A stretch of 64,000 nucleotides of DNA from Candidatus Uhrbacteria bacterium (GTDB lineage: Bacteria; Patescibacteriota; Patescibacteriia; UBA9934; GWF2-40-263): positions 17,887 to 81,886 of the forward strand of contig JAHFIQ010000001.1 in NCBI GenBank assembly GCA_023246355.1, written 5' to 3'. Both the position numbers and the translations under genes were made by a program. Positions 25,153 to 25,890 of this stretch are shown here, piece after piece; positions within the stretch are counted from its first letter, which is position 1, and the number at the start of each line of letters is the position of its first letter. Below the pieces are notes generated by a model, which saw only the letters and a list, made by a program, of their open reading frames with translations, did not search any database and was not told the DNA's origin.

Positions 25153-25178
25153 TCAGCCTAAAAACGGCTGATTTTTGT
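25153..25178 (+). terminator. rho-independent terminator of dcd
   Basis: TCAGCC-TAAAAAC-GGCTGA hairpin followed by TTTTTGT. Confidence 0.65.
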
Positions 25179-25187
25179 ATCAAAACC

Positions 25188-25216
25188 TTGACAAAAGGCC
25201 TATTTTGTGATATATT
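25188..25216 (+). promoter_or_regulatory. canonical sigma70 promoter TTGACA-17-TATATT with extended -10 (TGaTATATT)
   Basis: Consensus -35 and near-consensus -10 at 17-nt spacing. An AGGAG SD sits 8 nt before the ATG at 25270. Confidence 0.6.
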
Positions 25217-25269
25217 TCCGGCTTCGGATACAGATCCGACGAATTCACCTACAACCACCAGGAGATGAG

Positions 25270-25890
25270 ATGAACATCCGCTCACTTCCCAGCTGCCGCT
25301 TCGCCCACCCCTTCGACCGCCGGGTCAAGGTCGATGGGGACGAGCAGACACACGGCGTCGACGCCTCCCCTGATGCCATCGGAGGCCACTACGGCATGGG
25401 CTGGTACGAAGCCTTCCGTTGCCACAAGACCGGCCAGATCTACAAGGTCCACTGCTCGGACGGCGTGAACGGGGGCAAGTCCGCCCACAACGGCCGCGAC
25501 CTGAAGTGGCTGGAGGTGATGCGCGACCGCATCATCAGCCGCACCCGCAACCAGCGCATCGGGCCGATCAAGATCTCGGTCCACGAGTGGGCGATCATGC
25601 TCCACTTCAGCTTCTCGAGCTGGCTCGACCTCCTTCCCGGCGAAGAATTCAAGACCGTCGGGGACAGCAACCGCCACCTGGATGAAGGCCTGATCGGCAC
25701 CATCAACGGCGTGGACGTCGTCGTCGACCCCGGCTTCAAGGACGACCTGCCGCCGGTCGGGGGCTTCAGCGCCAGCCTCATCGAGGAGCTCTTCCCCAAG
25801 CGCTCCCCTGCTCCCGCCCACAACGAGCCGAGCAAGTTCGGCGGTATCTTCGCCGCCGCCTTCGCCAAGGCGAGCCTGCCCGCTCGCTGA
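25270..25890 (+). CDS. hypothetical protein on a GC-rich (about 65% GC) foreign gene
   Basis: 206 aa with strong GC3 bias and its own canonical promoter and SD; no family recognised. Confidence 0.55.
   Translation: MNIRSLPSCRFAHPFDRRVKVDGDEQTHGVDASPDAIGGHYGMGWYEAFRCHKTGQIYKVHCSDGVNGGKSAHNGRDLKWLEVMRDRIISRTRNQRIGPIKISVHEWAIMLHFSFSSWLDLLPGEEFKTVGDSNRHLDEGLIGTINGVDVVVDPGFKDDLPPVGGFSASLIEELFPKRSPAPAHNEPSKFGGIFAAAFAKASLPAR

Follow-up and report, generated by a model that had tools for sequence, protein, structure and literature searches.

Acquired genes of atypical composition ameliorate towards their host, following the concept of Lawrence and Ochman. In the 64,000-nucleotide stretch of a Candidatus Uhrbacteria contig analysed here (JAHFIQ010000001.1, forward-strand positions 17,887 to 81,886; hereafter the window), a GC-rich gene located between dcd and a dCMP deaminase gene appears to depart from this course. 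The protein of this coding sequence (CDS, 25270-25890) is given the working name X, and related loci and proteins are labelled with L-numbers and P-numbers, respectively. X resembles ameliorating acquired genes in its GC content and its GC content at third codon positions (GC3), both far from the norm, in its orphan protein and in having a viral relative. It differs from them in that no decay is seen at saturated sites, relatives carry it too, and neither mobility genes nor att repeats accompany it. Phage "morons", autonomous units of promoter, open reading frame (ORF) and terminator that sit between conserved genes and often deviate in GC content, also resemble X: X has its own promoter, ORF and 3' hairpins, is wedged between housekeeping genes and deviates in GC content, and comparable extra cassettes are gained and lost at its locus in relatives. 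Unlike morons, X does not lie in a prophage, its position is kept across deeply diverged genomes, and its GC deviation persists.

Highly expressed, codon-biased genes share with X a strong tendency to end two-fold codons in C rather than T (0.95 in X), a strong promoter and a strong Shine-Dalgarno (SD) sequence. In X, unlike in these genes, G-ending codons are favoured as well (0.83), the ribosomal-protein genes next door are nearly unbiased, and the same bias is shared by the nearby gene tasR, whose product is unlikely to be abundant. Proteins carrying a fused cold-shock domain (CSD, PF00313) are comparable to six clusters of the X family, in which a CSD is found at the N terminus, whereas the X protein of the window has no CSD, fold or Pfam match. 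Finally, in the stem-loop TasR proteins of the candidate phyla radiation (CPR), exemplified by CsTasR, stem-loop tigRNAs of ~54 nt are used, the RuvC domain is inactive, and the proteins act as repressors (bioRxiv 10.64898/2026.09.09.750476). The likeness to these TIGR-Tas systems holds only for the island neighbouring X, which contains a TasR-like protein and a repeat array of ~52-nt period and is, like X, GC3-rich, fast-evolving and syntenic; it does not extend to X itself.

The analyses described below lead us to favour, with a probability of roughly 55%, the reading that X is a long-resident, autonomous accessory cassette of Uhrbacteria-like Patescibacteria, in which a C/G-ending codon usage is maintained. 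The cassette, in which a strong sigma-70 promoter of its own is followed by a short leader with a canonical SD sequence, the 206-codon CDS and 3' hairpins, and which lies between the dcd terminator and the convergent deaminase gene, would have been inherited in place since before the divergence of these genomes. The GC excess would be held in each lineage by a force on synonymous sites within the unit that is translated or transcribed, most likely selection on codon choice or mRNA properties, and tasR and further orphan cassettes of these genomes would share the same C/G-ending "dialect".

An earlier reading of the window, made from the letters alone (the sequence-only reading), had described the gene as about 65% GC with a strong GC3 bias, and this description holds: the GC content of the X CDS is 0.659, with GC1/2/3 values of 0.62/0.45/0.91, compared to a GC content of 0.516 for the window without X. 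The 55 ORFs of the window have a mean GC3 of 0.555 (SD 0.080, median 0.554). X deviates from them by more than 4 standard deviations, and the only outliers are X and the tas gene (0.84), the third-ranked ORF reaching 0.71. The rise in GC begins with the start codon of X, the dcd-X intergenic region (25147-25269) having a GC content of 0.41, and GC3 is even along the CDS (0.83-1.00 per segment), the unconserved tail included. A bias limited to the conserved domain was considered and rejected, as GC3 is uniform over the CDS in both the window and the close orthologs. The fraction C/(C+T) reaches 0.95 in the two-fold pyrimidine codons (background 0.47), and G/(A+G) reaches 0.83 in the two-fold purine codons (background 0.46). 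The four-fold sites carry C, G, T and A at fractions of 0.66, 0.24, 0.08 and 0.03, respectively.

Relatives of X were found in genome scans with an alignment query, whereas a single-sequence query found none. The related loci belong to metagenome-assembled genomes labelled Candidatus Uhrbacteria, Yanofskybacteria, Zambryskiibacteriota or Patescibacteria group, some being auto-labelled "uncultured Gammaproteobacteria". The gene order in the window is gyrB, secE, nusG, rplK, rplA, dcd, X, the convergent dCMP deaminase gene and two small ORFs, followed by the gene for a large low-complexity protein, the dihydrofolate reductase (DHFR) gene, thyA, tmk and gatB. The slot between dcd and the dCMP deaminase-DHFR-thyA-tmk genes is occupied by X in at least six other Uhrbacteria-like lineages. 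Orthologs with 52-68% identity lie in this slot in L007/L016, L008, L010/L019, L011/L012, L014, L015, L017 and L018, and the order from gyrB through secE-nusG-rplKA-dcd-X to the dCMP deaminase-DHFR-thyA-tmk-gatB genes is shared by L007, L008, L010, L011/L012, L014, L015, L017 and L018. Within the species of the window, seven contigs obtained from six samples encode an identical X protein. Members of the family with only 39-49% identity are located elsewhere, beside rpoD and dnaG (L020), murJ (L024), a VirD4-like gene (L025) and recG (L026).

The divergence of X was compared with that of its neighbours. Between the window and L015, identity is 97% for nusG and rplK, 91% for rplA, 89% for dcd and 85% for the deaminase, compared to 64% for X. 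The nonsynonymous distance (dN) is 0.02-0.10 in the flanks and 0.226 in X, and the rate of protein evolution is 2-10 times higher for X than for the neighbouring genes. Flank synonymous distances (dS) are 1.1-1.7 for this pair (0.44 for rplK), and for more distant genomes they are at least 2, reaching more than 3, or not computable. Since the Nei-Gojobori (NG86) dS of X is deceptively low owing to the bias, codon identity at conserved residues was compared instead. At these residues, X orthologs have the same synonymous codon in a fraction of 0.63-0.75, where independent draws from the pooled X usage would give 0.62-0.64. This near-chance sharing indicates that the silent sites of X are saturated between orthologs and that each lineage has retained the bias on its own. 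In a two-state decay model that starts from an all-GC ancestor, the GC3 ceiling is 0.76-0.81 for the closest pair and 0.63-0.68 for distant pairs, while the observed GC3 is 0.87-0.95. As neutral decay at saturated silent sites should have erased the bias, these results indicate that the high GC3 is not a relic of transfer.

The sequence-only reading had instead proposed repeated acquisition from a high-GC donor. A recent foreign insertion, the GC content of which would be an unameliorated relic, fits the strong composition outlier, the promoter and SD sequence unlike those of most neighbours, and the absence of a recognisable family. It does not fit the occurrence of X, and likewise of tasR, at the same site in relatives: X is found there in at least six other lineages with saturated flanks, and its own silent sites are saturated as well. 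Moreover, the bias varies in step with host composition, none of 19 chromosomal loci provided a high-GC cellular home for the family, and a misassembly is countered by the same arrangement in the seven contigs mentioned above. A recent insertion is therefore considered very improbable.

A GC excess of X was seen at every locus examined, further metagenome loci (three) included, the sequence of L031 being equal to that of L030. X exceeds its flanks by 8-22 GC points in 19/19 chromosomal loci, the flanks ranging from 37 to 54% GC. The GC3 of X is 0.87-0.95 in six lineages of ~50% GC (flank GC3 ~0.55-0.60), 0.57-0.65 in the lineages of ~40% GC (flank GC3 ~0.30), and 0.77-0.79 in two loci with a flank GC3 of 0.28-0.38. 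Over 15 loci, the GC3 of X is correlated with that of the flanks (Spearman 0.70, p = 0.0035) and exceeds it by +0.29 on average (range +0.12 to +0.51). The mean logit shift of X GC3 is 1.45 and is similar in kind across hosts.

A different explanation is recurrent xenologous replacement, in which X and tasR would belong mainly to a GC-rich mobile pool, such as phages, and the chromosomal copies would be overwritten time and again at the same locus. Such overwriting would preserve their high GC content and give an appearance of fast evolution. A viral relative does exist: two IMG/VR contigs (L027 and L028, 70 and 191 kb) encode a 156-aa homolog with 36% identity, located in DNA of ~60% GC. The divergence of X and tasR also far exceeds that of their flanks, TIGR-Tas systems occur in phages and CPR (PMC12045711), and other GC3-rich orphan cassettes are gained and lost at the locus (L017 8700-9173 and 10763-11422; L011 9343-9795). 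In L015, a tRNA-Ser(tga) gene (10824-10900) adjoins X, lying between it and the dCMP deaminase gene downstream of a TTGACA-type promoter (about 10683-10717).

Against such replacement, the promoter, SD sequence and 3' hairpin are kept with X on the chromosomes, whereas the viral copy is preceded by a CCACAAA...GGCATAAAA motif rather than a TTGACA promoter. The GC3 of X tracks that of the host, and the values of 0.87-0.95 in the chromosomal copies lie above those of the viral copy and genome, whose two-fold C and G fractions are ~0.8. Among the neighbours of X, no integrase or mobility genes were found, att-like direct repeats flanking X do not exceed chance, and the genome closest by its flanks also has the closest X. 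The tRNA and Rfam scans of the 64-kb window were both empty. The viral relative keeps a mobile reservoir in play, and an ultimately mobile origin of X is conceivable, but such a reservoir accounts neither for a GC3 above the virus's own nor for the tracking of the host. Recurrent replacement is thus regarded as rather unlikely, though it deserves real weight.

Close to the X homolog, the viral contigs carry an RNase HII gene and a gene in which a nucleoside deoxyribosyltransferase is joined to a Tad2-like domain; in L027 (UViG_3300002485_000004), it is the C-terminal domain of the Nuc_deoxyrib_tr protein that is Tad2-like (Thoeris anti-defence). In the same contig, the motif cactAxCCACAAA...(G)GGCATAAAA is repeated before consecutive genes (7900-8010 and 8480-8615), and the CCACAAA...GGCATAAAA motif is probably a phage-specific promoter.

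GC-biased gene conversion at recombination hot spots, arising for example under diversifying selection in competent populations, could also act on these genes, biased repair then raising their GC content. The GC3-rich genes are fast-evolving accessory ones, the logit shift is similar in kind across hosts, and some Patescibacteria are naturally competent (PMC10187176). However, neither the intergenic region upstream of X (0.41) nor the TIGR array (0.53) is GC-rich. In addition, C exceeds G at the four-fold sites in the coding sense in 19/19 X loci (marginally in L022, 0.37 vs 0.35) and also in an orphan of high GC3 encoded on the other strand (L010 5718-6395), which would not be expected of a strand-symmetric process; the plus strand of the window is itself C-skewed, which accounts for part of the C excess. 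The effects of GC-biased gene conversion reported in bacteria are far smaller than offsets of +0.3 to +0.5 GC3. We judge this explanation to be quite improbable, though it is, with recurrent replacement, one of the two live rivals.

In contrast to X, rplK, rplA and nusG are almost unbiased, with a two-fold C fraction of 0.58 (background 0.47) and a G fraction of 0.39 (background 0.46). The codon bias of X is not comparable to that of the ribosomal-protein genes of the same genome and therefore is not the genome's ordinary translational selection. A dual coding constraint was considered as another source of the high GC3. An opposite-strand ORF (25282-25896, 204 codons) is open nearly throughout in the window, and the antisense frame exceeds the sense ORF in some loci. 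If this ORF were real, its constraint could give the high GC3. The antisense frame, however, carries 1-5 stops in 11/17 homologs, for example in L014 (5), L011 (3), and L018 and L023 (2 each), and where it is open, this follows from the scarcity of TTA, CTA and TCA codons that a high GC3 entails. The values of GC1/2/3 (0.62/0.45/0.91) show the pattern of the plus frame, indicating that the antisense ORF is a shadow. Dual coding was rejected and is given next to no credence.

Several points weigh against the favoured reading of an old cassette with maintained codon usage. High-expression translational selection for X is unlikely, since the ribosomal-protein genes are nearly unbiased, and the product of tasR, which shares the bias, is unlikely to be abundant. 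The viral homolog lies in DNA of uniform composition and has a codon usage like that of its neighbours. The NG86 dS is unreliable at such bias and saturation, and the decay model is rough, though clear in its direction. The vertical inheritance of X would follow from synteny and a coarse match of identity ranks rather than from a resolved tree. In the fusion gene of L034, only the X-domain part is elevated, and this elevation (0.61 vs 0.51) is not significant. Finally, the function proposed below for X is drawn from domain fusion and neighbourhood, no fold match having been found.

The layout of the locus is consistent with an autonomous cassette (Table 1). The promoter and SD sequence named by the sequence-only reading, TTGACA-17-TATATT with a TG extension and AGGAG 8 nt from the ATG, were all located at the coordinates given for them, the distance of 8 nt being counted from the SD centre. 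The X promoter matches 11/12 sigma-70 positions and is the top match in 20000-34000, where nine others match 9/12; shuffled sequence yields 6.6 matches at 9/12 or better. Upstream of X, TTGAC[A/T/G] is found in 12 loci (the window, L015, L017, L008, L010, L011, L014, L018, L020, L021, L024 and L034), TATNNT follows at the same ~17-nt spacing in the orthologs, and the promoter often lies in a shared context, TTGACAAAA...TTTTGTG-TAT. All 14 of the upstream regions inspected in orthologs contain an SD sequence such as AGGAG or GGAGG, those of Yanofskybacteria and Zambryskiibacteria loci among them. X is probably well expressed.

The edges of the unit are marked in a similar manner. The dcd terminator forms the predicted upstream edge of the X transcription unit, and a matching hairpin and T run lie 5' of the X promoter in L015, L008 and L010. 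The fold of the predicted 5' untranslated region (UTR) is not significant (z -1.37). On the 3' side, the two hairpins are the probable terminator region of X, with a weak T tail; a program scan picked up the second of them in part (25925-25942), and the motif GTACCCC...GGGGTATTCTGTT is found 3' of X in L017 too. Judged from these elements, X would be an autonomous unit with its own promoter, its own terminator and a single ORF.

Table 1. Features of the X cassette and of the upstream island (positions within the window; TSS, transcription start site)
Feature	Position	Strand	Description
Degenerate repeat array	18340..20160	+	~52-nt period; TGTC-GAAA-GACG hairpins; GC 0.533; ~1.8 kb between gyrB and tas
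tasR	20297..21938	+	GC 0.649; GC3 ~0.84; split by +1 frameshift near 20896
Intrinsic terminator of dcd	25149..25180	+	Perfect 10-bp inverted repeat AAAATCAGCC/GGCTGATTTT (hairpin 25149-25175), then T run
-35 hexamer TTGACA	25188..25193	+	Sequence match
Extended -10 TGaTATATT	25208..25216	+	TATATT at 25211-25216; 17 nt after -35
5' UTR, ~46 nt (predicted)	25224..25269	+	Inferred from promoter, TSS assumed near 25223; 6-bp hairpin UCGGAU-ACAG-AUCCGA near 5' end
Shine-Dalgarno AGGAG	25260..25264	+	5 nt to ATG at 25270; 8 nt from SD centre
X CDS, 206 aa	25270..25890	+	GC 0.659; GC3 0.91; orphan family
3' hairpin CCACGAC-ccc-GTCGTGG	25893..25909	+	Between X and convergent dCMP deaminase gene
3' hairpin ATACCCC...GGGGTAT	25913..25944	+	Between X and convergent dCMP deaminase gene

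The start signals of the native genes were compared with those of X. Most native genes indeed have no SD sequence, as had been proposed: an SD-like 5-mer precedes 21/121 called genes in seven related loci, a strong and well-placed SD sequence is found only at X among 16 reliable starts nearby, and other candidate SD-led starts are few across the 64 kb. The native genes with an SD sequence have a median GC3 offset of 0.00, their GC3 being normal except in X and one other orphan. SD-led genes were accordingly rejected as a GC3-rich class, and the SD sequence is no mark of foreignness, as SD-led native genes with normal GC3 exist. The pattern put forward for leaderless or near-leaderless initiation at native genes, a -10-like box close to the ATG, is seen at gyrB, where TATACT ends 14 nt 5' of the ATG, and at thyA, where TATAGA lies 6 nt 5' of it. 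The corresponding box of prmC was not located, and that of ORF 4627 was unconvincing; the pattern of gyrB and thyA is absent from most other starts examined.

Another feature was observed at some native starts. Arrays of CCACC with an exact 9-nt spacing (T/A-TCCACCT units, 2-4 copies) are located at 22102-22124, 26655-26686(-), 26757-26779 and 56822-56852, abutting the start codons of secE, the dCMP deaminase gene, orf107 and an 830-aa ORF. The window contains 9 such arrays, compared to 0.17 from shuffles, and those at 31027-31058 and 18021-18034 lie within coding sequence. The three-copy form is limited to loci of the species of the window and was not found in relatives. The array is likened to the 16S anti-SD strand and not to the SD sequence.

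The second GC-rich gene of the window, tasR, lies between gyrB and secE in an island that the sequence-only reading had called TnpB-like. Instead, its C-terminal ORF (20682-21938) matches the TIGR-Tas RNA-guided endonuclease model NF052498 (112.3 bits, cutoff 100), with a weak IS110-type RuvC similarity, and the tas orthologs of L015 and L008 score 121.9 and 125.3 bits, respectively. The array upstream of tasR, with spacings at multiples of 52 nt, is consistent with a stem-loop TIGR array of ~35 units and with the ~54-nt tigRNAs of CPR TasR proteins; an ORF over the array (18559-19479, minus strand) was dismissed as spurious. L015 and L017 have intact tasR orthologs of 501 and 540 aa, respectively, and L008 has a partial one. 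Each is located between gyrB and secE, their GC3 is 0.82-0.85, and dN is 0.27 between the window and L015. The tasR frameshift of the window, placed by comparison with the L015 and L017 orthologs, recurs identically in the L001 and L003 assemblies of the species, and the effector ORF is not intact. Thus, like X, tasR is syntenic, fast-evolving and GC3-rich within its CDS only. The island also resembles X in its outlying composition and in expression signals that set it apart from most neighbours.

Nevertheless, X is not a component of the TIGR-Tas system, because it occurs without tas at the locus in L010, L011 and L018; no tas match was found in the X-carrying loci L011, L018 and L019/L010. 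Exact 12-14-mer matches between the array and the window equal the shuffle expectation, and none falls in X.

Other GC3-rich orphans are found in the relatives (L017 8700-9173 and 10763-11422; L010 5718-6395, L011 9343-9795 and L018 9342-9794, the last three on the minus strand). Each has its own TTGACA promoter, SD sequence and terminator and lies between the same housekeeping genes. They are absent from the window and had no Pfam, NCBIfam or PADLOC match. The gap between gyrB and secE, which contains TIGR-Tas in the window, is filled in L010 by a reverse-transcriptase gene (RVT_1, 3890-5071, minus strand) and an orphan of high GC3. Mobile or defence elements with a link to RNA thus seem to gather in this gap as a hot spot.

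No family match for X was found in Pfam, NCBIfam, PHROGs or PADLOC, in line with the impression that the 206-aa protein had no family recognisable by eye. Profile searches of the PDB with 18- and 49-member alignments returned only capsid proteins that were not significant (E at least 0.06), and Foldseek of the X model gave no PDB or BFVD match. The family comprises 18 clusters at 90% identity among 5.8 billion proteins, none of them named, and 81 clusters at 50% identity among 1.84 billion. X is, by these searches, an orphan family confined to Patescibacteria and one viral lineage of ~60% GC.

The conserved motifs of X are YAHPFDR, AIGGxxGxGWYE, VHCSDGVNGGK, EWAIM, WLD and GxxGxPVVVDP. In the 49-member alignment, A12, D16, W45 and G143 are invariant, and C62, D64, G65, E106 and G140 are nearly so. 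In the AlphaFold2 model (pLDDT 81.7, pTM 0.70), X has a beta-rich core with a meander of four strands, one long helix and another, smaller sheet, followed by a disordered tail. The tail is Pro-rich and is predicted to end in an amphipathic helix, FGGIFAAAFAKA, which may tether the long form of X to the membrane.

An N-terminal CSD is fused to X in the six clusters mentioned above, two of which are above the Pfam cutoff, and JGI annotates one fusion as "cold shock CspA family protein". A metagenome scan for CSD fusions returned only non-fused X members. The CSD fusions point to single-stranded nucleic acid as a substrate or partner of X. In addition, genes of deoxynucleoside triphosphate (dNTP) metabolism lie near X in the Uhrbacteria loci and, independently, in L023, where X adjoins phosphoribosyltransferase and deoxynucleoside kinase genes; this neighbourhood is weaker support for function. 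Overall, X is probably cytoplasmic and acts on or with single-stranded nucleic acid, as suggested by the fusions and gene neighbourhood. In two contigs with an N-terminally extended X (the CSD-fused P0035 and P0043), a gene for the hibernation factor Ribosomal_S30AE lies within 1-2 kb, at 7854-8213 in L034.

Two of the genes beyond the deaminase gene in the window also showed unusual features. thyA (31271-32110, minus strand) is 75-80% identical to its counterparts in L008, L011, L014, L016 and L018 and only 52-55% identical to those in L017 and L019, and gyrB distances are similar among the loci that have gyrB. These comparisons suggest a xenologous replacement of thyA in some lineages. The gene for the large low-complexity protein is a 1112-aa ORF (27424-30762) with a long Pro/Ala/Thr-rich N-terminal half, which gene callers begin at 28480. 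Its segment 28001-28500 reaches 62% GC while the GC3 of the whole ORF is only 0.43, and the high GC content of the segment is probably due to its amino acids and not to GC3. The orthologs of this ORF have a weak FtsK_gamma match.

A wider proposal, which we hold to be clearly unlikely, is that X, tasR and other orphan cassettes form a class of Patescibacteria accessory genes written in a selected, C/G-ending "codon dialect" that is independent of genome composition. Such a dialect, if true, could keep the mRNAs stable or translatable in dormancy, phage attack or tRNA depletion. Dormancy is a candidate among these, with X fusions carrying cold-shock domains and lying near hibernation-factor genes. 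A more radical option is that the products are made in the context of a GC-rich partner cell or phage. If so, a hidden regime of expression in CPR bacteria could be read from a GC3 that persistently sets particular genes apart.

A deviant GC content is routinely read as a sign of recent horizontal transfer, and for X this inference fails in a manner that can be checked: the deviation is kept across some twenty genomes of 37 to 54% GC and across saturated silent-site divergence. The locus therefore offers a clean natural case in which the local upkeep of GC by codon or mRNA selection, by biased gene conversion or by gene flow from a mobile pool can be studied. It also flags an uncharacterised domain of Patescibacteria and one viral lineage that is sometimes fused to a CSD. 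As the effector gene of a CPR TIGR-Tas system shares the compositional behaviour of X, this behaviour may bear on how such systems are expressed or exchanged.

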